Below are positions 7,038 to 22,087 of a stretch of 25,622 bases of DNA, piece by piece. The DNA is from a virus (Duplodnaviria; Caudoviricetes). The notes beneath the pieces were generated by a model, which had not been told where the DNA came from, did not search any database, and saw nothing but the letters and a program-made list of their open reading frames with translations. Within the stretch, counting starts at the first letter, position 1; each line of letters begins with the position of its first letter. The DNA lies in the IMG/VR virus record IMGVR_UViG_3300008117_000365, positions 1 through 25,622 of that record; one strand, written 5' to 3'. A program made the position numbers and the translations under genes.

Positions 7038-8207
7038 ATGGCTGATTTTTCATTAACTACGCTCTTCGTAGTACCAGTAGGGCAAACTGCGCTCCCTAGC
7101 TCTGGATCTACGCAAGACTTAACTCCTGGCCAAGTTGGTATTTTCAAAAATGATTATGCCGTGGCTACAGCTGTAAACATCGCAGCTGCTCCTTACTTTT
7201 ATGTTGCGCAGGGCCGTACAAACACTTATCTGCAAGGCTCTAAGCGTTCTGATAAGATTAAAGGTTGTCCTTCAGGTGCTGGTTGCAATAGCAACGTAAC
7301 TGAGTGGTATAAAGTGAATGGTTGTCCTACACCTGTAACTCAAATTACAGATGTAACAAACTTTAACGTACAGTGTGGTGATGTTATCACTGTAACTTTA
7401 CGTGCTCACTCTAGCTACTTAGACACTCTGTATTTCAACGGTTTTACACGTTCAGTAACTGTAAACGCACCTTGTTGCGATTGTGGTGGAGATCCTTGCT
7501 CTATCGTTGATATCCCTGCATTGATTGATGATATCATCTATCATTTCTTATTGCAAGCTCCTGGTAACAACCCTGACAACATCACCTTCTCTGATTTCTA
7601 TCAGTTCCAAAGAATTGGTAACGACCAAAACGCTTTCTTGCGTATCACTGGTAAGCCTCTTACCAAATATGGTCAGCCTTGTGATGTTGCAGCATTTCCT
7701 TTCGAGTATGACCGTATGTGGTTCCGTACATTCGTGTACAGTGGACCTGCAACAACTGCTGACTTCATTGTAGCAGATGCTTGTAACATTGTAGCTGATG
7801 CTACCGTTGTACAGCGTTCTTCTTATGCAGTGGGTACTTCTGCTGAGATTGCTCAGTTGGAGAAAAACTTCTACAGCTACCAAGCTGGTTACCTGAAGCA
7901 TTTGTACAGAATGAATGGTTACAACGAGAACTTTGAAAGCTGGGTATCTGATGGTACTACCTACGATACTTACTACATCAAGTTCAATGAGTATGACAAG
8001 TCTGCATATCAGTGGGGTGACTACATTTATGAAGATGCAACTGTAATCATTGCTGTTGCAAGCGGTAGTGCTGCTGCAACTGCTATCGAGGCTGTTCTTG
8101 TTGCTGGTTTGGGTCCTGTAGCTGGTGATAACTCTTGTATCACAACTACATCCACTACAACTACTGTATGGCCTTCTACTACTACTACATCAACTTTGAT
8201 TCCGTAA
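7038..8207 (+). CDS. Abundant virion protein, probable auxiliary capsid (decoration) protein, with C-terminal Thr tail
   Basis: 389 aa with the same strong codon bias as the capsid gene. Contains an RSDKI motif near the N-terminus, is followed by a strong hairpin, and occupies the position of crAss auxiliary capsid genes. Confidence 0.6.
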   Translation: MADFSLTTLFVVPVGQTALPSSGSTQDLTPGQVGIFKNDYAVATAVNIAAAPYFYVAQGRTNTYLQGSKRSDKIKGCPSGAGCNSNVTEWYKVNGCPTPVTQITDVTNFNVQCGDVITVTLRAHSSYLDTLYFNGFTRSVTVNAPCCDCGGDPCSIVDIPALIDDIIYHFLLQAPGNNPDNITFSDFYQFQRIGNDQNAFLRITGKPLTKYGQPCDVAAFPFEYDRMWFRTFVYSGPATTADFIVADACNIVADATVVQRSSYAVGTSAEIAQLEKNFYSYQAGYLKHLYRMNGYNENFESWVSDGTTYDTYYIKFNEYDKSAYQWGDYIYEDATVIIAVASGSAAATAIEAVLVAGLGPVAGDNSCITTTSTTTTVWPSTTTTSTLIP

Positions 8208-10384: not shown

Positions 10385-11032
10385 ATGCAATTCACTCCTC
10401 CACAATATTGTAGCCCTTGTCAAGATCCCTGCCAATCAAAGGTTGTGGGGTCTGATCAAGTTGGTTATACTGGACCAAATCTTCCTTGTACTAATGTACA
10501 GACATGTGATTCGTTGAGTGTGGCTCTTCAAAAGATTGATGAGCAAATCTGTGATTTAAAAAGTACTGTTATTTCTTTACAGAACCAAATTAATGCTTTA
10601 ACTACTACAACAAGTACATCTTCTACTACTACTACTAGCACAACGACTGTAACTCCTCCTACAACAACCACCACAACAACGTTAGCAGAGAGCTATCCTG
10701 TAACTGTTTATTTAGCTGTTAATGGATTAGTTCCATCACCTGTTACAATATGGTATGACACTGGAAGTGGGTGGCAAACTTGGAATATTTCTCCAGGTAA
10801 TTATCCAAGTTATATACCATCAACAACTTTCACTATAGCTGCTGGAGGCACATTTATATTTGGTATTAGAAACTTTTCAAATCAAGACTTGTTGTTTGGT
10901 CAAGGACAAGTGTCAGGAGATTTCACTTCTAAATGTGGTATATCAAATCCAGTATCACAAGTAATTAATGGTGTAACTAGTATATATGCAAATCTACAAA
11001 TACAAGATAATGCATATGTACTTTGTCCATAA
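10385..11032 (+). CDS. Fibre/appendage-like protein: Cys-rich anchor, coiled coil, Thr stalk, beta-rich C-terminal domain
   Basis: The N-terminus is paralogous to that of 9236 (SDQ-V.YTG...QT.DSLS). Thr tract at about 10601-10682. Confidence 0.6.
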   Translation: MQFTPPQYCSPCQDPCQSKVVGSDQVGYTGPNLPCTNVQTCDSLSVALQKIDEQICDLKSTVISLQNQINALTTTTSTSSTTTTSTTTVTPPTTTTTTTLAESYPVTVYLAVNGLVPSPVTIWYDTGSGWQTWNISPGNYPSYIPSTTFTIAAGGTFIFGIRNFSNQDLLFGQGQVSGDFTSKCGISNPVSQVINGVTSIYANLQIQDNAYVLCP

Positions 11033-11067
11033 TATTAAAAAGCTCTGTTTGTTGGTTTTCAGGGCTT

Positions 11068-11103
11068 CTCCTGGGGGTTTTTACCCCTGGGAGTTTTTTA
11101 TTT
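11068..11103 (+). terminator. Rho-independent terminator ending the head/fibre block
   Basis: Stem-loop CTCCTGGGGGT-TTTT-ACCCCTGGGAG followed by TTTTTTATTT. Confidence 0.85.
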
Positions 11104-11104
11104 A

Positions 11105-11180
11105 TAACAAGTTTAGTTAGAATAGATAACTAGAAAGGTTAAAATAATTTGGAAAATATCAAAACTCTTTCGTATCTTTA
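11105..11180 (+). promoter_or_regulatory. Bacteroidota-type promoter with two upstream TAAC-N7-GTTA inverted-repeat boxes
   Basis: Boxes at 11105-11119 and 11127-11141. TTTG at 11148-11151, a 21 nt spacer, then TATCTTTA at 11173-11180. Confidence 0.7.
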
Positions 11181-11208
11181 CTGCAATTTTAACTAAATTA
11201 AATCGTAA

Positions 11209-12459
11209 ATGCCTGAAAATCAATCCCTTCTGCACCAGCTGGAGCAGATGCTTCACTGGAAAAAGAGCAAAAAGTTCTATGCAGAGAAACTAAACATTAC
11301 AGAGGATGAGGTTGATTCGTTGATAAGAGAGTTAAGGAATTCAGAAAGTATAAGAAATGAGGCAGAAACTGCCAGCTATATTGGAGAACTAGAAGATGCA
11401 ATTGTAAGGTTTTCCGAGGATGTGGAAAAGGGAACAGGTGAGATAGTCTTTAATAGTAAAGAAGAGATCAAAGATTTAGACGATTTAATTGAGAAGTGTA
11501 AGATTGATACAGACAAGTGGGAAATAACTAAATACGTACAAAACTACTGGGGGAATGCTGACCAGCCTCATTATCAAGTGAAGGCTTGGCTTGGTAAAAA
11601 GAAAGGAGAACAGGTATTCCAAGACTCCTTTATAGAGTTCCTCAGTTCATACACTCCTGCTTCTCAGGAGATAATGTCTCCAAAACTACATCCAAGCAAG
11701 TCTAATGCTGCTCTTGTTATTAACAAACAGGATGCGCATTACAATAAGATTGATGTAGATGGAGATAACAACATTAAAGAAAGATTTGCTAGAATGGCTT
11801 ACAGGACTGAAACAATCCTTGCACAAGCTGCTTTAGCAAATAACTTAGATAAGATTGTATACATTATTGGATCAGATGAATTCAATAGTGAGTTTACAGG
11901 AACTACAACCAAAGGCACTCCACAACAGAATATTGGAGGTTACCATGAGTCATTCAAATCAATATGCGATCATGAGGTTCTTATGATTTCATTGCTACTC
12001 AACTACACAAGTAATGTGGATGTGATATATGTAGCTGGTAATCACGATGAATATGTAGGATGGCACATGATAAATTGGCTGCAAACCTACTTTAGATATA
12101 TCCCTGGAGTGACATTTGATTGTTCTCCTAAGTATAGGAAGTACGTAAGTTATGGAGTTACAGCTATGATGTTTAATCATGGTGATGCTATCAAACCTGC
12201 TAAACTTGCTGGTATATTCCCAATGGAATATAAAGATAATTGGTCTGACCATGAAGTGTTTTACATATTCACAGGTGATAAGCACCATGAATTGAGTCAA
12301 GACTTTAACGGAATTAAATTTTACCAAATCCCTGCATTCTCAAATGCAAAGAGTGGGTGGGATGAGAAGAATGGATACACGTGCGCGAGAGGTGAGGTAA
12401 CTGCGTTTCTCATTGATGAGCTCTATGGGATGACGAACATATTCAAACAATATTTATAA
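11209..12459 (+). CDS. Calcineurin-like metallophosphoesterase with N-terminal HTH-like segment
   Basis: Ordered motifs QDAH, GSDEFN, AGNHDE, NHGD, TGDKHH. The N-terminal KKFYAEKLNITEDEVDSL resembles a helix-turn-helix. Confidence 0.8.
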   Translation: MPENQSLLHQLEQMLHWKKSKKFYAEKLNITEDEVDSLIRELRNSESIRNEAETASYIGELEDAIVRFSEDVEKGTGEIVFNSKEEIKDLDDLIEKCKIDTDKWEITKYVQNYWGNADQPHYQVKAWLGKKKGEQVFQDSFIEFLSSYTPASQEIMSPKLHPSKSNAALVINKQDAHYNKIDVDGDNNIKERFARMAYRTETILAQAALANNLDKIVYIIGSDEFNSEFTGTTTKGTPQQNIGGYHESFKSICDHEVLMISLLLNYTSNVDVIYVAGNHDEYVGWHMINWLQTYFRYIPGVTFDCSPKYRKYVSYGVTAMMFNHGDAIKPAKLAGIFPMEYKDNWSDHEVFYIFTGDKHHELSQDFNGIKFYQIPAFSNAKSGWDEKNGYTCARGEVTAFLIDELYGMTNIFKQYL

Positions 12460-14650: not shown

Positions 14651-17600
14651 ATGGCTGAACAAGAACAAGGTAACGTTAGACAAGAGTATAATAATGCCAC
14701 CACTGGTCTTAATATGGACCAGACAGTTAATCAGATTCCGAAAGGTAAGCTGACATATGCATTGAATGCTGTTGTTGAAAACTTTGATGCTAATTCTGTA
14801 AACTATCAGAATGAGCCTGGGAATGAGCCTTGCGTTTCATTCCCTTCTGGCTTTGTATTGGTTGGTACACATTTCATCCAGGAGAGAAACAAACATATAT
14901 TCTTCATCACTAACCCTGAAACAGGTGGTAGTCAGATTGGATATATGGAGAATAACGATTGTATATACCGTGTACTTGTAAATGCTCCTTGTCTTAACTT
15001 TAATGTTAACTATCCCATCCTCAAGGCAGCACACAAGATAACCAACTGCACTACAGAAATCTATTGGACAGATGGTTACAATCCTAGAAGATACTTAGAT
15101 ATTGATGACATTCCAAAGATATTAAAGTCTGGTACTCCTTTCTGTAATCCAGAGTATACAGATGATGTAGACTGTAATCAGTTAAAGCTACAGCCTAATT
15201 TTAAGATTCCTCAATTAGAAGTGGTTGATGTTACTAGCACAGGTAATCTGATTGCTGGTACATACCAGTTTGCTATCCAATACTCTGATCCTCAGGGTAA
15301 TCCTTACACTTCCTACTACTCTGTTACCAATCCCACTCCTATTGCTGATGAGTTCATAACATCTGTGAACTTTAACTATCCTGTTGGTAAATCCATCATC
15401 CTTAATATAAGCAACTTAGAGGATACAGGACTATATCAGTATTTCAACTTAGCAGTGATTAGAACTGTTAATGCTATCACTTCTGTTGAACTTGTAGGCA
15501 CTTATTATATTGATAATGTCCAGAAGCAAATCACATACACTGGTCAGAACGTAACACAAATACGTCTAACTGTTGATGATATATTTGAGAAATTCCCTTA
15601 CTATGATATTGCACAAGACTTAACAAATGTGCAGGACATTCTTGTTTGGGATAACTTAACATCAATTGATCGTATTAACTACCAAAGCATTGCTAATCAA
15701 ATCAATCTGTTATGGGAGAGCTGGAGAATACCAGCTAATGAAAACTATGCAGATGAGTTGAACGCAACCAATCTCAGAGGATATTTGAGAGATGAGGTTT
15801 ATGCTTTTGAGATAGTATTTTTGCTTAGAAATGGTAAGCAAACTGATGGTTTCCATATTCCTGGTAGAATTAAAGGCCCTTCAGAAACATTACAACCAGA
15901 CGTACCAGACACTAACCCAGACTTTATAGGCAATCCTGATTACGCATCTGGAGGAATAGGATATAGTCCTTATTGGAAAATCTATAACACAGGATCTGTA
16001 ATTGGTACAAGTCCTGGTTACTCTCCTGCTCCTGAATACAAAGGTCCTTATCAATATGGCCAGTTTGGTTATTGGGAATCAACAGACACCTATCCATGTA
16101 ATGTAGATGTATGGGGTGATCTTGCTGGTCAACCTATTAGACACCATAAGTTTCCTGACATTAATATCAGTCCTGCGTATGAGTCTAAGATATTCTTAGG
16201 CCCTAATACAATGGTTCAGGGTAATGATGCTGTATTTCCTATTGGTGTGCAGATAGATGTACAACAAGTTAGTGCGCTAATTCAAGCATCTAATTTAACA
16301 CAAGAACAAAAGGATGAGATTGTAGCATTTAAGATTATTCGTGCAGACCGTGGTACTAATAAGTCTATTGTAGCAAAGGGCATTCTTAGAAATGTTAATA
16401 CATACGAAAGAGAGAAGCAAACCTACTTCTATCCTAACTATCCTTATAATGATCTTAACCAAGATCCGTTCCTTAATTCTACAAATAATGCTTGGAGTCA
16501 GATATGTGATGGTTATAATGTAATAATTACTGTATTAGGTCCTGATCCAAATGGTGGTCCTGACTTTGCTGAGGTACAATACACAGATTGTAACACTAAC
16601 AAACAGGGCACACAAAAGTATTATTCCATAGGTACATTCCCACTTTGCTCTACCAGCAAACCTGTTATACTTGCTCCTGCAGAAGGAAAAACTGGACTTT
16701 CTACATATGAAGAGTGGACAGTAACAATATGTCCTCCTACATTCCTAAAAGCTGGAGGAAGAATTGAGTGGGATGATATATATGAAGGAATATCTCAAAC
16801 ATGGGTTAATGGTTGGCCAAGTGTAGACACTTTAACTCTTTCTGTAGTTCCTGGAACAGGTGGACCTGTAGCAATAGAAAATCCTGAAAATATTTGCATC
16901 ACTGGACCTGTACTTGTCACTGGAAAAAATTGTAAGATTCAGAATCCACAACCTGGATTTACAGAAAAATACAGACAGATATTTAACTCTCCTGAAACAT
17001 CTTTTGGACAACCATTCCTAGGTGATATTCTGAAGCTTGAGAGTGTAATGTTTGGTGGAGGTAAGGCTCACTTCGTTGAGGTGAGAAATAATGCTAAGTA
17101 TAGACTTTTAACTAAAGAAGCTCAAGAAGATGCTCTTAATAGTTCTAATGAGTTAGGTAAGCTCACTTCGCCATTTAGTGCATCAGCAATGTTTGCTGCA
17201 TATCAAGCGTATTTAACCATATACGTAAATGGTATTACTAGAAAGAACTATGCTTATTCTTTCAACTCTGTGGCTGATTATAACTATGGAGTGGGAGTTC
17301 CTGATAATCAGGGAATTAAACAACGTACTCTTGATATTGCTAGATATTTAATACCTGGTGTACAGAATGTTGGTGATATACATAACATCAACAACTTCCA
17401 AAGAGAATCATCTGTTTATTTGAGAACTGATATAGGTAAACAAGCTCTTCCGTTCCCAGATCAGAGTCCTAACATGTTATCTGGAATTGTTCCTATTGTT
17501 ACAGATAAATCAAGATTCACTATATCAGAGGCAGGAAATTGTGATGTTCCTGCTAAGGAAGAAGATATATCTGTAGTGTCTTATTATGCTTCTCTTAAGA

Positions 17601-19738
17601 ATGTGTTTGTAAATCAATATGGACAAATCTATTCTTATGACACTGTAGATACTGGATTCCAAGCATTTGTGGATGCTGACACTCCTCAGATACAAACTGT
17701 ATTTGGTGGTGATACATTTATCAGCAGATTTACATTTAAGACCAAGCTTCCATTCTTCATTGATAATCGTGTTAATGCTCCAGATGATAGTGACATATTC
17801 TATGATGAGATAGGTAACATAGCTTATCCGAAATACTGGCATTCAGCTCGTTCTATTTTAAGTAACTACACAAGTGGTGGTGGTTTGCTCACTAACATTA
17901 TTTCCTACAAAGCTCACGAGTTTGATTGTCCAAATAGTCAATTACCTGCACCTCCAGCTGAAAATCCTAATAGAACTTTCTATGATGGATATTTCTACAT
18001 GTTTGCTTATGGTATTCCCAACTTCTATTGTGAAAGTTCTTATAATGTAGATTTACGTCAGGCGTTCAATAATAGAGAAGGAGACTACTGGCCTCATGTA
18101 AGTACAGGTATTCCTGATGACTGGGTACAAGAAAGCTTTGTTCCTATTGCTCAGGATAACACTTATTACTATAATGTTACATTCTCTAAACAGAACAGGG
18201 AGAACACCTTCACTCACCTGCCTATAGATTGGGACAAACCTTGTTACACCTACTATCCATTCAGGGCTATTTATTCTGATGCTCAGAACATAGATGCTGA
18301 TAACAGGGTCAATAGCTGGTTAATCTACAGATCAATATCTTATTTTGACTTCCCTCAGAACTATGGAGACTTAATCTCTTTAGATGGTATTCAGAACAGA
18401 GCTGTGTTAGCTAGATTTGAGAACAAGACGTTGATGTACAACAACTTGTTGACAATCGATACTAGCAATCCTCAAGCTGCTTATGTTGGTAATCCTATGC
18501 TCTTCAGAGGAGCTCCTCCAATTGATTTTGCTGAAACTGATTTGGGGTATGTAGGAACCCAGCACAAGATGCTTCTGAAGATTCCACAAGGACAGGTAAC
18601 TATTGATGCTAAACGTGGTCAAGTTTTCTTAATCACTGGTACACAAGCTGTGGATCTATCAGGATTTGGTTCAGGACTTAATAGGTTCTTTACAGACCAT
18701 CTAGCATTTGAAATCTTACGTTACTTCCCAGATGTACCTGTAGACAACCATTATAACGGTATTGGTTTACATGGTGTATATGATAGCAAGTATGATAGAG
18801 TATTAATAACTAAGCTTGACTACATCCCTAAGAGCAGTGATGTTAAATGGGATGCTGTAAATAGAGAGTTCTATGTAGAAGAGGTGTATCCTCAAAATGG
18901 TCCTACAACAACTAGCACCACTACACTAGCTGGTACTACAACAAGTACCACTACTAATCCAGGAACTTTCACTACCACTACAACTATTCGTCCTATAGTT
19001 ACACGTAAGGTGGTGTATGTTACAGATCTAGAATACTTCTGTAATAAGAGCTGGACTGTGTCATTTAACTTCAACACTAAGAGCTGGATAAGTTTCCACA
19101 CCTATTTCCCTAACTGGTACATTGGTGAGAACAACTTCTTCTACTCTGGTATTAATGGATGTTGCGAAGATCTTGATGCTATTGTTGGTACACTTGGACC
19201 TATTCCAACTACCACCACTACATCTAGCACATCTACAACATCTACAAGTTCTACAACAACTACCACTACAACAAAGAGTTGTAACTTAGAAGGATCTGCT
19301 GTAGAGAAAAGTTGTAATCTTGGAGGATCAGCAATAGTGATTGGACCAACTCCACCTCCTCCTTGTACAAGGCCTTCAAGTTTAATAAATGATGTATTCT
19401 TTACAGGATACGATATTATATCTCCACCATCTAATGTTGTTTCTACAGGAAGCTTAATAGCTGCATGTAATGCTGTGGTATATTTGAATGCAAACATTAT
19501 AGATGGAGTTTATGTAAACGTTATACCTACATTCCTAACCATCCAATATCAAGGACTTTATGTTGGATCTAAGGTGTTTGTAGCAAATGGTACAAATAAT
19601 TGTGCAACCATCCCTGACGGCTGGTACTTTACAGGAGCTTCTCAGTCAGTGAACACAGTGTTCCAAGTGGTGGGTGGACTAATTGTATTTATTACTAACT
19701 GTAGTACAACTACCACAACAACAACTTCTGCACCTTAA
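14651..19738 (+). CDS. Muzzle / tail stabilisation protein (P22 gp10-like), main N-terminal part with Thr-linked extra domain
   Basis: 1695 aa with N-terminal GLNMD...YALNA, IYWTDGYNPRRY, GYLRDEVYAF, FGGDTFI and late GVYDSKYDRVLIT / WISFHTYFP motifs of this family. Confidence 0.75.
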   Translation: MAEQEQGNVRQEYNNATTGLNMDQTVNQIPKGKLTYALNAVVENFDANSVNYQNEPGNEPCVSFPSGFVLVGTHFIQERNKHIFFITNPETGGSQIGYMENNDCIYRVLVNAPCLNFNVNYPILKAAHKITNCTTEIYWTDGYNPRRYLDIDDIPKILKSGTPFCNPEYTDDVDCNQLKLQPNFKIPQLEVVDVTSTGNLIAGTYQFAIQYSDPQGNPYTSYYSVTNPTPIADEFITSVNFNYPVGKSIILNISNLEDTGLYQYFNLAVIRTVNAITSVELVGTYYIDNVQKQITYTGQNVTQIRLTVDDIFEKFPYYDIAQDLTNVQDILVWDNLTSIDRINYQSIANQINLLWESWRIPANENYADELNATNLRGYLRDEVYAFEIVFLLRNGKQTDGFHIPGRIKGPSETLQPDVPDTNPDFIGNPDYASGGIGYSPYWKIYNTGSVIGTSPGYSPAPEYKGPYQYGQFGYWESTDTYPCNVDVWGDLAGQPIRHHKFPDINISPAYESKIFLGPNTMVQGNDAVFPIGVQIDVQQVSALIQASNLTQEQKDEIVAFKIIRADRGTNKSIVAKGILRNVNTYEREKQTYFYPNYPYNDLNQDPFLNSTNNAWSQICDGYNVIITVLGPDPNGGPDFAEVQYTDCNTNKQGTQKYYSIGTFPLCSTSKPVILAPAEGKTGLSTYEEWTVTICPPTFLKAGGRIEWDDIYEGISQTWVNGWPSVDTLTLSVVPGTGGPVAIENPENICITGPVLVTGKNCKIQNPQPGFTEKYRQIFNSPETSFGQPFLGDILKLESVMFGGGKAHFVEVRNNAKYRLLTKEAQEDALNSSNELGKLTSPFSASAMFAAYQAYLTIYVNGITRKNYAYSFNSVADYNYGVGVPDNQGIKQRTLDIARYLIPGVQNVGDIHNINNFQRESSVYLRTDIGKQALPFPDQSPNMLSGIVPIVTDKSRFTISEAGNCDVPAKEEDISVVSYYASLKNVFVNQYGQIYSYDTVDTGFQAFVDADTPQIQTVFGGDTFISRFTFKTKLPFFIDNRVNAPDDSDIFYDEIGNIAYPKYWHSARSILSNYTSGGGLLTNIISYKAHEFDCPNSQLPAPPAENPNRTFYDGYFYMFAYGIPNFYCESSYNVDLRQAFNNREGDYWPHVSTGIPDDWVQESFVPIAQDNTYYYNVTFSKQNRENTFTHLPIDWDKPCYTYYPFRAIYSDAQNIDADNRVNSWLIYRSISYFDFPQNYGDLISLDGIQNRAVLARFENKTLMYNNLLTIDTSNPQAAYVGNPMLFRGAPPIDFAETDLGYVGTQHKMLLKIPQGQVTIDAKRGQVFLITGTQAVDLSGFGSGLNRFFTDHLAFEILRYFPDVPVDNHYNGIGLHGVYDSKYDRVLITKLDYIPKSSDVKWDAVNREFYVEEVYPQNGPTTTSTTTLAGTTTSTTTNPGTFTTTTTIRPIVTRKVVYVTDLEYFCNKSWTVSFNFNTKSWISFHTYFPNWYIGENNFFYSGINGCCEDLDAIVGTLGPIPTTTTTSSTSTTSTSSTTTTTTTKSCNLEGSAVEKSCNLGGSAIVIGPTPPPPCTRPSSLINDVFFTGYDIISPPSNVVSTGSLIAACNAVVYLNANIIDGVYVNVIPTFLTIQYQGLYVGSKVFVANGTNNCATIPDGWYFTGASQSVNTVFQVVGGLIVFITNCSTTTTTTTSAP

Positions 19739-19750
19739 CACAATATAACA

Positions 19751-20359
19751 ATGACAGTATTAATAACATTAACAACAGCTGGAACGGATACAGGTCCTTT
19801 TGATCTCTACTCAAATGTAGATGGTTATGTTTCAGCATTTGAAACAGGAGTGTCTAAAGCAGCTCTTGTAGCTGGTTATTCTTCTTCACTTGTGCCTAAT
19901 GGTACAACAATCATAAGAGTAAAGTCTACAGGCACTTGTTTAAACTATATAGACATTATAGTAGTTACAACAACTACAACCACTACTACAATTGTACCAC
20001 CACCTACAACAACTACTACAACAACTATTTTTGGAGATACATTCTTTATCACAAACGGTAGTACAAATAGTACGATAAATAACATTACAGTTTCAGCAGC
20101 TTCTTTCTACTTCCTCAATACAGGATCATTGCCTGTAGGACCTAGTCAAACTGCTTCAGGTACTCATTCTGCATTAGTTTCAGCTAATATTGATGTAGAT
20201 GTTACTCAGTCTCTTGGTAATGCATGTCTTACACTTTATGTAAATACAATAGCTGTTGCACAGCAGAATGTAGGTTCAACAGGGGTTTACACCTTCACTG
20301 GAATAACCTTTGGAACAACTGATTTAGTAGAGTTTGAGATTGTAGATGGAACTTGTTAA
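19751..20359 (+). CDS. Two-domain Thr-stalk appendage protein inserted in the muzzle locus
   Basis: N-terminal domain of about 70 aa paralogous to the N-terminus of 20370. Thr tract at about 19966-20027, then a beta-rich C-domain. Confidence 0.6.
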   Translation: MTVLITLTTAGTDTGPFDLYSNVDGYVSAFETGVSKAALVAGYSSSLVPNGTTIIRVKSTGTCLNYIDIIVVTTTTTTTTIVPPPTTTTTTTIFGDTFFITNGSTNSTINNITVSAASFYFLNTGSLPVGPSQTASGTHSALVSANIDVDVTQSLGNACLTLYVNTIAVAQQNVGSTGVYTFTGITFGTTDLVEFEIVDGTC

Positions 20360-20369
20360 ATAAATAAGA

Positions 20370-21236
20370 ATGGCTAAAACAATCGTCATAAAGTTAACTT
20401 CCTCAGGACCTACAGCGGGCCCTTTTACAATCACTGATGAATTTGGTAACATTCTGGCAACAGGTGTTACCAAAGATCAGTTGATTGAAGGGGTGAGTTA
20501 TAGTGTTGCTGATAATGTTACTATGGTGACTTTGGAATCCACTGGTAAATGTAAAAGCAAGAAAACATTCCCTGTTGGTGTTACAAATCCAGTTGATTTA
20601 GCATCCGCAGAATACACACAGGTGAGAACAGCTTGTCTCTGGAGACACCTGAAGAACCCAGTGATATACAACTACTTCTATGGAAACATAGAACAATACA
20701 TCATTGAGTATCCTTTTGCTTATCAGTATCAGGATGAGATTCTTCAGAGTGTACAAGATTACACCAAAGCATACAAGTACTTCCCTGATCCAGATGGTGT
20801 GTCTGATGACAACCGCAAGATAGAAACTGATGATGCTTGGTTTAATAAGGCTGTAGTGTACAATGGTCAACAGTCTTCTGGTATACTTGAACTGGTTCCT
20901 AAACCAATCAACAACCTAAAGGAGTATTTGAAGTATCCTATATACAACACTGATAGTAAGACAATTACATTCACCAAGAGTGATAACTTCTATCAGTATA
21001 ACACATTCTGGTCATTGGTTAAGTATAAGCAGGAACCTCTGTTCGTGCGCACGTGCGAGGGTCTGTCTATAGATAAGTTAGTAAACCAAGCAAATATGGA
21101 TTATGGTAAGAGATCCTTTAAGAAGGAACCTCTGCGTGCTAAAGAATTGAAGGTGAGACACATCCTAGATAATAGATATGATGCGCATCTGGTTAGCCAG
21201 TTCATTATTACACCAGCTCAAATCTCTTACAAATAA
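20370..21236 (+). CDS. Probable C-terminal part of the muzzle protein fused to an extra N-terminal domain
   Basis: After the paralogous N-domain comes LWRHLKNPVIYNYFYGNIEQYIIEYPF...FNKAVVYNGQQSSG...LRAK, the kind of segment expected to follow the WISFHTYFP motif in unsplit muzzle proteins (recalled family pattern, not searched). Confidence 0.6.
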   Translation: MAKTIVIKLTSSGPTAGPFTITDEFGNILATGVTKDQLIEGVSYSVADNVTMVTLESTGKCKSKKTFPVGVTNPVDLASAEYTQVRTACLWRHLKNPVIYNYFYGNIEQYIIEYPFAYQYQDEILQSVQDYTKAYKYFPDPDGVSDDNRKIETDDAWFNKAVVYNGQQSSGILELVPKPINNLKEYLKYPIYNTDSKTITFTKSDNFYQYNTFWSLVKYKQEPLFVRTCEGLSIDKLVNQANMDYGKRSFKKEPLRAKELKVRHILDNRYDAHLVSQFIITPAQISYK

Positions 21237-22087
21237 TGGCAAAGAAGCTTACATCCACAAAAGCAAGAAAGATATTGCACGACAAAGAAGTGCATGGGCA
21301 ACCTTTGACTGACAAACAGCGCAGGTTCTTTGGTGCTATTGCTGGAGGAGCTAAGCCTTACAAAGCTGAATCTGGAGGATGGTTAGATAAGTATGATGCT
21401 CCTAAAGCACAGAACGGTATAGAGGGAACAATGGGTGGATTGACAGATAAAGGATTTAATTACAACGGTGCATGGGGTGGCCCATCTATGCAAACTGGTG
21501 GTAACATTCAGCCTGCTATGGCTGGGGCTAATCAAACTGTTCCTATGGCTCAATTAGGAGACAGTGTTAAACCTATCACCATGCAACTAGCAATGGGAGG
21601 ATCTATTCCTGGTGCTGTAGGGTTCACGTACGCACGTACAGTTGGAGCTGCTCCATCCAACGGACCATATGCTAAGAAGACAAAAGCTTCTGCACAGAAT
21701 GGTATGGAAATGAAATACTATCAGCAAGGGCTAGACTTCAAACCTAAGACTATTAGTCAGGATGGTAGTGAGATTCCTGTAGATCCTATGGGATATTGGA
21801 ACCCTGAGAATGTAGGTAACCCAGTAATCATCCCATCTAACATCATCACTATGGAGGGTGTAGATCAACCTCTCCTTGGTATATCTGATGAAGGAGATGT
21901 CCAATACATGGAACCAGGAGAAGACTATGAGTTTGAAGGAGAATATGTAACAGAATATCCTGTGGCTAAGAAGGGTATAAGTGTGAATAATGCTGATGCT
22001 CAACCTATTAAAAAGTTAGACCAATTACTTAACTTTACGAACTATAACAAACCAACCAAGGGCGGCTGGTTAGATAAATATAACTAA
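21236..22087 (+). CDS. Putative internal virion (cargo) protein with repeated AQxG/xxGG motifs
   Basis: 283 aa with TAATG coupling. GGWLDKY occurs twice and there are many KAQNG/MQTGG-like motifs. Located after the muzzle, where crAss cargo genes lie. Confidence 0.5.
   Translation: MAKKLTSTKARKILHDKEVHGQPLTDKQRRFFGAIAGGAKPYKAESGGWLDKYDAPKAQNGIEGTMGGLTDKGFNYNGAWGGPSMQTGGNIQPAMAGANQTVPMAQLGDSVKPITMQLAMGGSIPGAVGFTYARTVGAAPSNGPYAKKTKASAQNGMEMKYYQQGLDFKPKTISQDGSEIPVDPMGYWNPENVGNPVIIPSNIITMEGVDQPLLGISDEGDVQYMEPGEDYEFEGEYVTEYPVAKKGISVNNADAQPIKKLDQLLNFTNYNKPTKGGWLDKYN

Follow-up and report, generated by a model that had tools for sequence, protein, structure and literature searches.

The muzzle gene of a crAss-like phage is cut in two in the DNA studied here, a stretch of 25,622 nucleotides (nt) from a virus of the Duplodnaviria; Caudoviricetes (IMG/VR record IMGVR_UViG_3300008117_000365, positions 1 to 25,622), hereafter the window. 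Three open reading frames, named after their first nucleotide, follow one another: 14651-19738 (1695 residues), 19751-20359 (202 residues) and 20370-21236 (288 residues). TAA ends both 14651 and 19751, and the spacers measure 12 and 10 nt. The entire sequence of the muzzle family is present only when 14651 and 20370, here the N and C chains, are taken together. A beta-sandwich of approximately 70 residues, which we term the H domain, opens both 19751 and 20370. In the reading that we consider fairly probable, the two chains refold as one muzzle subunit clasped by cysteines, and the product of 19751 may clip on via its own H domain.

Two genes together cover one muzzle

The structural module of the window is of the crAss type, running from the portal through the major capsid protein (PF23898) and ring proteins R2 and R1 (PF25702, PF24228) to 14651; a position after R2 and R1 is that expected of a Crassvirales muzzle. 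The crAss_MUZ family (PF25731) matches 14651 with 122.4 bits against a curated cut-off of 27. In PHROGs, 14651 matches the start of phrog_15100, and residues 89-286 of 20370 match positions 1589-1781 of the 1783 in that family (E 1.8e-9). The latter gene is recognised as the muzzle end in PHROGs only, the PF25731 match belonging to 14651. A first-pass annotation, made from the letters of the window alone, had read 20370 as resuming muzzle sequence and the pair as complementing chains, and both claims were borne out: on unsplit muzzles, 14651 and 20370 align consecutively and without overlap. Three cultured or complete single-chain muzzles (Lbo-JY46, Fpv3 and csAssE-Sib) are covered first by the N profile, which ends at 1457, 1761 and 2061, and then by the C profile, which begins at 1448, 1766 and 2065, respectively.

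The core of 20370 is 42-77% identical to the ends of 120 longer, single-chain muzzle homologues (505-2000 residues). In 103 of these the pre-break motif lies 27-40 residues from the W-x-H strand, with a turn of approximately 5 residues; the junctions of the other 17 were not parsed by our script. No H domain occurs at the junction of the parsed homologues, and no in-frame H insertion in one chain was found among the 120, the 17 unparsed junctions included in that number.

A profile of 48 single-chain relatives matches gp44 of crAss001 (PDB 7qok; E 1e-10), significantly over residues 9-394 and weakly over later stretches, while a PDB sequence search returned no match for 14651 or 20370 alone. 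The break maps to approximately residues 1234-1236 of the 1371 in gp44 through a weak, non-significant collinear stretch, and the weakness of this position counts against our placement of it. Given the order of gp44 domains in PMC10172136, the break probably lies late in the C-terminal propeller part, close to where the rings join, so that appendages would leave from the muzzle side rather than from the distal crass domain. Docking of the 19751 protein onto the tail tip, as the first-pass annotation suggested, would then lose its distal location; docking as such is considered below.

Conservation of the split

The muzzle is split in 79 of 79 evaluable nearest loci, a set picked by likeness to the C chain. 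The C chain measures 287-300 residues and is 77-100% conserved across 80 loci, and the N-chain tail extends 51-880 residues from the motif. All split C chains seen retain the H domain, within a fixed head of approximately 89 residues. In wider searches, 2737 proteins of 158-504 residues (fragments included) match the muzzle C part.

Could the split be an artefact, a decaying gene, or a break undone by readthrough, frameshifting or splicing? Some crAss-like phages reassign the stop codons TAG and TGA, and in this genome 14651 and 19751 share one reading frame, separated by TAA and 12 nt. These explanations are nevertheless largely refuted and we regard them as very remote, since DNA contigs from two runs that bear no flag as a possible source of the window (X8 and X10) span both stop codons with zero indels and the C chain is conserved as described above. 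The 83 direct junctions divide into 19, 31 and 33 with frame offsets of 0, 1 and 2, respectively, and 79 of them use TAA as the stop; an offset this random, together with the use of TAA, excludes readthrough as a rule. An RNA-library contig (not shown to be a transcript) is likewise collinear over positions 19746-20409.

Anatomy of the N-chain tail and the H domain

Beyond W1479-G1500, 14651 leaves family-like sequence and continues, much as the first-pass annotation described, with a Cys-Cys motif, a threonine/serine (Thr/Ser) tract, two C-x-L-x-G-x-A repeats, a 112-residue domain and a Thr tract (Table 1); the Thr-linked variable modules that it placed on this new C-terminus are indeed there. 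The Cys and Gly of the repeats are invariant in 23 of 23 aligned rows, although these rows were chosen by that same pattern, and the repeats look like a one-Cys form of the clasp peptide that bears C1504 and C1505. The variable module was present in 23 muzzle-tail segments (393 searched). Distal modules are common to muzzle tails, H genes and fibre genes, with 13 of 84 clusters found on more than one carrier.

Table 1 Features of the split muzzle locus and its surroundings in the window
Feature	Position	Strand	Basis or remark
Fibre-cluster gene with Thr stalk, plus slot before exonuclease	10385..11208	+	slot is the usual place of the free H gene in relatives; empty here
Muzzle N chain, 1695 residues	14651..19738	+	muzzle sequence ends at G1500, clasp peptide and variable tail follow; PF25731, phrog_15100, phrog 37948
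In-frame Thr-rich loop insertion, residues ~1415-1447	18893..18991	+	gene boundary in 12 related loci, giving three chains
Last conserved muzzle strands before the break, W1479-G1500	19085..19150	+	run into the W-x-H strand in single-chain homologues
Clasp peptide with C1504 and C1505	19151..19195	+	likely partner of 20370 linker (C89) and H domain (C61); co-occurrence
Thr/Ser stalk	19208..19273	+	sequence
Two C-x-L-x-G-x-A repeats, spacing 11 residues	19280..19342	+	candidate docking peptides for free H proteins
Variable Cys-containing tail module	19367..19702	+	no Pfam match
Terminal Thr tract and TAA	19703..19738	+	sequence
H domain (C63) of optional gene	19751..19966	+	six-strand beta-sandwich and short helix; AlphaFold2 model
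Thr stalk and 109-residue exchangeable distal domain of 19751	19967..20359	+	no Pfam match reaches the cut-off (SpaA-like, E 0.11)
H domain (C61) and linker (C89) of muzzle C chain	20370..20639	+	paralogy to 19751 head; cross-profiles
Muzzle C-terminal 198 residues	20640..21236	+	last propeller strand and, probably, ring-joining part; phrog_15100 positions 1589-1781

The heads of 19751 and 20370 had been called clearly paralogous. Paralogy holds, but it is moderate rather than obvious: identity is 38% over residues 2-65 (E 3.9e-8 in a search of the window's own genome), and a two-sequence BLASTP of 19751 against 20370 gave no alignment. The Smith-Waterman score is 100, whereas none of 2000 shuffles exceeded 53; at E<1e-3, profiles built from one group of heads recover the other, namely 63 of 69 from muzzle C chains and 101 of 118 free ones. 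The muzzle-C heads form one clade (Shimodaira-Hasegawa-like approximate likelihood-ratio test, SH-aLRT, 99). A profile of H finds 2077 clusters at 50% identity; in 149 of the best 150 matches the domain begins at residue 1-8. Its conserved Cys is kept in 165 of 172 free H domains, and five proteins of virus NIOZ-UU157, one of them 287 residues long, match H well.

AlphaFold2 predicted H as a six-strand sandwich with one helix (predicted local distance difference test, pLDDT, 95). Against FN3 and immunoglobulin (Ig)-like domains this model reaches middling scores (Z up to 5.9, root-mean-square deviation 2.2-2.9); with FN3 in particular Z is 5.0-5.5 and the deviation 2.4-2.9 over 64-69 aligned residues, the alignment beginning at approximately residue 14-20. 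The model thus suggests, by fold only, an FN3-like domain minus strand A, where the strand names (A, B) follow the usual FN3 lettering. Pfam yielded no match for H, the FN3 profile (PF00041) included, and hhalign against 105 Bacteroidota FN3 repeats gave a probability of 0.2%. Foldseek against the PDB found nothing at E<=0.001, nor was there a PDB sequence match. Atlas searches led from H to unnamed viral clusters only and from the distal domain of 19751 to nothing usable. A type IX secretion C-terminal domain was also considered and rejected, its Z of 4.8-5.1 not exceeding that of other sandwiches.

Fission, second cut and probable re-fusion

In a quick tree built on 97 rows of the 200-residue C core, a single set (SH-aLRT 95) contains 33 of 33 split rows plus 7 single-chain rows. 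The single-chain rows P0001, P0006/P0014 and the P0002 group are nested among split rows, and the starred branches of the tree force 3 changes. One origin of the split followed by re-fusions is the simplest reading, the alternative being that the nested rows reflect recombination or chimeric assembly. The linkers of P0001, P0006 and P0014 are longer, which fits re-fusion scars.

The Thr-rich loop of the N chain is the site of a second cut in loci L043, L217, L227, L228, L230, L231, L235, L238, L239, L244, L251 and L278. No H domain is present at the new start in these 12 loci. Median loop length is 51 residues for single-chain sequences (11) and 60 for split ones (108), and a Thr tract is present in 28 of the split loops. 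These sequences show a route that leads from loop through Thr insertion to fission. Seven representative three-chain rows do not form one clade (approximately unbiased test, p-AU, 1e-6); the second cut has arisen, or been passed on, more than once. One locus (L227:16567-17814) has, within this second break, a gene of 415 residues with a G-D-S-G-S motif, protease-like by eye and matching nothing in Pfam.

Cysteine pairs across the break

Cysteines on either side of the break were tallied in 191 loci, which yield 119 unique gene pairs. Wherever the N chain has C1504 the C chain has C89 (75 pairs), and the remaining 44 pairs lack both residues, with no discordant case. C1505 and C61 of the H domain are both present in 116 and both absent from 3 (L212, L215, L256), again without discordance: the three loci lacking C1505 are exactly those lacking C61, and the replacing residues differ. 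Within the first 69 pairs, C89 was the sole column of 919 others to track C1504 perfectly. The nested single-chain P0001 retains equivalents of C1504 and C89, while P0006 and P0014 lack both.

From these patterns we consider it likely that C1504-C89 and C1505-C61 are inter-chain disulfides, in which case the peptide after G1500 would lie along the H domain. Inter-subunit disulfides are described as stabilising the crAss001 tail (PMC10172136). The first-pass annotation suggested that the domain shared with 20370 could let the 19751 protein dock; covariation of the cysteines points to a Cys peptide of the other chain, 14651, as the likely partner of H, so the 19751 protein would attach to peptides of the muzzle tail rather than to the 20370 H domain.

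In the arrangement we propose, 14651 and 20370, cut apart at a short turn, would refold as one subunit. By analogy with the two-gene nozzle of Pseudomonas phage A1002, the 198 C-terminal residues of 20370 very probably complete the propeller and the ring-joining part in trans. The clasp peptide of 14651 would bind the 20370 H domain, the post-G1500 peptide probably serving as the strand A missing from this FN3-like fold, and the two disulfides would lock the chains. The H domain of 19751 would clip likewise onto the C-x-L-x-G-x-A repeats and show its distal domain on the Thr stalk at the muzzle side.

Alternatively, H is a complete, self-standing display or oligomerisation domain, propeller complementation alone joins the chains, common ancestry explains the Cys pattern, and neighbouring tails are cross-linked by the repeats. 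That H folds alone with high pLDDT, that independent Cys changes are few, that three-chain relatives do without H at the second cut and that the repeats are unstructured in one model (L188, below) are all compatible with this. It does not readily account for zero discordance at two Cys pairs in 119, where other clade-marking columns reach only phi 0.89, nor for an H domain kept by every split C chain seen and N-terminal in nearly all carriers. We consider this explanation improbable.

Several results nonetheless weigh against the clasped muzzle. For each Cys pair no more than 2 changes are forced by the starred branches (sign tests, p 0.5), and a topology that unites the three C1505-C61 losses in one clade is not rejected (p-AU 0.93). 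Since H is absent from the second cut, a clasp is not needed for fission. The Z of 5-6 for the H model may simply reflect the common sandwich arrangement, and hhalign of H against FN3 and the outgroup sockets described below gave a probability of at most 2%. A muzzle C chain in L188 (14497-15426) opens with two C-x-L-x-G-x-A-type repeats before H, at FN3-like spacing; in its model the repeats are disordered (pLDDT <50), which is a weak test, the alignment being nearly rowless there.

An optional gene at the break

The first-pass annotation described the muzzle as split around 19751 and advised surveying relatives for variable gene content at the break. Such content is found: among the 119 unique pairs the break holds nothing in 82, an H gene in 30 and another gene in 7. 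The notion that the muzzle was divided around this gene is contradicted, as the split is clade-wide, the gene is optional, and most of the 80 closest H genes (60) are found in the fibre cluster, before the exonuclease, the other 20 occupying the break. Gene 19751 did not cause the split. Where the fibre cluster is in view (loci L190-L302, some contigs fetched twice), a free H gene occurs in 54 of 64 split loci and in 0 of 17 single-chain loci. 19751 is an optional member of a clade-wide kit comprising an anchor, a Thr stalk and a variable head. The idea that free H genes reached the break several times independently was not borne out, one clade not being rejected (p-AU 0.70).

Whether 19751 docks on the muzzle-tail repeats we judge to be close to an even question, tipping slightly towards no. 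Across 56 genomes, strict tail repeats and a free H gene occur together in 28, repeats only in 1, H only in 15 and neither in 12 (Fisher p 3e-4, kinship not corrected). After phylogeny, on a tree in which several rows are poorly anchored, approximately 3 pairs agree and 0 oppose (median p 0.25); this, like the 15 genomes with a free H gene and no strict repeats, speaks against docking. Complex prediction of the 19751 H domain with a 34-residue repeat peptide scored 0.19 against a mark of 0.32, with controls not folded, and counts neither way.

A related possibility keeps the two-chain clasped muzzle but makes 19751 a fibre-cluster appendage that docks on fibres or hubs rather than the muzzle, its gene having moved into the break, probably when Thr-codon tracts recombined. 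The predominance of fibre-cluster positions among the closest H genes fits this, as does the 19751 H domain itself, which shares 88-89% identity with fibre-cluster copies versus 56-70% with several other break copies. The 15 genomes without strict repeats, the unrelated genes that also enter the break (7 of 119) and the C-x-F-x-G motifs on fibre proteins in 8 loci, all with at least two H genes, point the same way. On the other hand, the window's 10385 fibre gene lacks such a motif while its muzzle tail has two, and strict tail repeats are accompanied by a free H gene in 28 of the 29 genomes that have them (uncorrected). We hold relocation of this kind to be unlikely, and retain docking at the muzzle as the tentative assignment.

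H genes also occur in series: the fibre cluster of L179-L189 contains four consecutive ones, two of them bare domains of 74-78 residues and one of a type without the conserved Cys. In L167:4588-6090 and L172:5032-6231 a C-x-L-x-G motif stands directly behind the protein's own H domain, which would permit chains.

Split FN3 domains in relatives

In relatives with a single-chain muzzle, the fibre protein contains a whole Cys-bearing FN3 in L200:5822-7651 and L205:1351-3171. In L190:3595-6328, L193:4728-7808 and L207:5361-7779 an FN3 is divided between neighbouring genes: the fibre protein stops after strand A, the next gene opens at strand B, and either side of the cut bears a Cys. FN3 repeats from secreted proteins of Bacteroidota are related to this split-FN3 socket (probability 98%), and the socket sits in the gene slot of free H genes, before the exonuclease. 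The Bacteroidota repeats (PF00041 with PF18962) carry one Cys where strand A begins and another in the F-G loop. H differs by an extra helix, and homology to them would be by fold, slot and Cys position only. We hypothesise that H descends from such a split FN3, no sequence relation to the socket having been detected.

We infer that an H socket from the fibre cluster became the C-chain start once, in the clade ancestor, free H genes being optional. More speculatively, a disulfide-locked plug-and-socket system derived from split FN3 could operate across the virion, its socket recruited to clasp the split muzzle and its plugs loading exchangeable proteins on muzzle and fibres, alongside a cycle of Thr-loop insertion, fission and re-fusion; we think this broader scheme possible but doubtful.

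Setting of the window

At least half of the window's words are present in 18 of 24 runs listed, mostly freshwater metagenomes (13 studies; 6 rows possibly source). The viral order suggests a host among the Bacteroidota; a protein of a single-chain-muzzle relative (P0427, L207) is named from Chitinophaga sp. YR573, which bears on hosts of the wider group only. Neither the H domain nor the window DNA matched a cultured phage record. A promoter and terminator scan gave chance level only. RNA-library contigs cover the window partly (16 of 30 and 11 of 30 bins) and are silent on expression level.

The exonuclease-like gene inside the tail module (11209-12459; phrog_704) has a fixed place in most relatives and is missing in L193, L211 and L212. 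The gene 3' of the muzzle C chain (21236-22087) ranges from approximately 240 to more than 1700 residues across relatives and is sometimes fused to the homologue of 22089. Other virion genes (7038-8207, 10385-11032 and homologues of 8969) have Thr tracts with or without variable Cys-rich heads, and such tracts occur on them in single-chain-muzzle relatives too.

Relation to known systems

The closest relative of known structure is crAss001 gp44 (PDB 7qok, 7qol, 8ckb; PF25731), of the same family and at the same position after ring protein R1. The family is characterised by a seven-blade propeller, two Ig domains, a crass fold and a ring-joining domain, in a hexamer that gates the tail channel. 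gp44 is one chain; the available text attributes length variation to insertions within the crass and IG2 domains and mentions no split, Thr stalks or H (PMC10172136). The muzzle is likewise given as a single protein in the accessible part of a review (PMC10136315).

A split nozzle is already known from Pseudomonas phage A1002, where gp42 (nozzle-base) and gp39 (nozzle-rope) complete one propeller and platform, as seen by cryo-electron microscopy (PMC13730344); the muzzle here is known from sequence, and as far as that goes it too consists of consecutive, non-overlapping parts in two genes. In A1002 the C-part gained an N-terminal extension with an Ig-like domain, as 20370 gained its H head; there, accessory proteins dock along the new end through beta-sheet addition (PMC13730344), a role that the new end may share here. 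A1002 belongs to another phage group, and its long rope, on the C-part, binds 11 fibre dimers, whereas here the variable tail is on the N chain and 20370 has its short fixed head in place of an N-terminal rope. The clasp here also differs in its likely use of cysteines, and the split in being common to a large clade with probable re-fusions and a second cut.

For docking, the nearest parallel is Tuc2009 BppU-BppA, in which, from the portion of PMC4742702 available, a short C-terminal extension completes the beta-sheet of an accessory Ig-like domain, similar to our proposal. In joints of this type the acceptor lacks an edge strand; the H model has six strands, and its FN3 alignments, of middling score, start after strand A. 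The Tuc2009 accessory protein is optional and carries a binding module, as 19751 may; its joint is a beta-hairpin in a siphophage baseplate, seen in a crystal structure with no disulfide mentioned in that portion, while the joint here is inferred (PMC4742702). Ig-like adhesins of gut crAss-like phages are reported in bioRxiv 10.64898/2026.02.02.702849, whose accessible text does not mention this system. Searches of the open-access literature turned up no description of a split crAss muzzle, an H domain or split-FN3 phage joints.

Essential and conserved, the muzzle acts as gatekeeper of crAss-like virions and has been described as one chain; a large freshwater clade makes it from two, sometimes three. 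Genes of 288 residues annotated as hypothetical are muzzle parts. The loci form a natural series that starts at a short loop and passes through an in-frame Thr insertion to fission, a course that recurs and has probably been reversed; such a series makes the fission of a propeller gene testable. The Cys pairs give exact residues to test. If the clasp is real, it would be a small natural covalent peptide-socket pair, and the phage tail would offer two permissive display sites.

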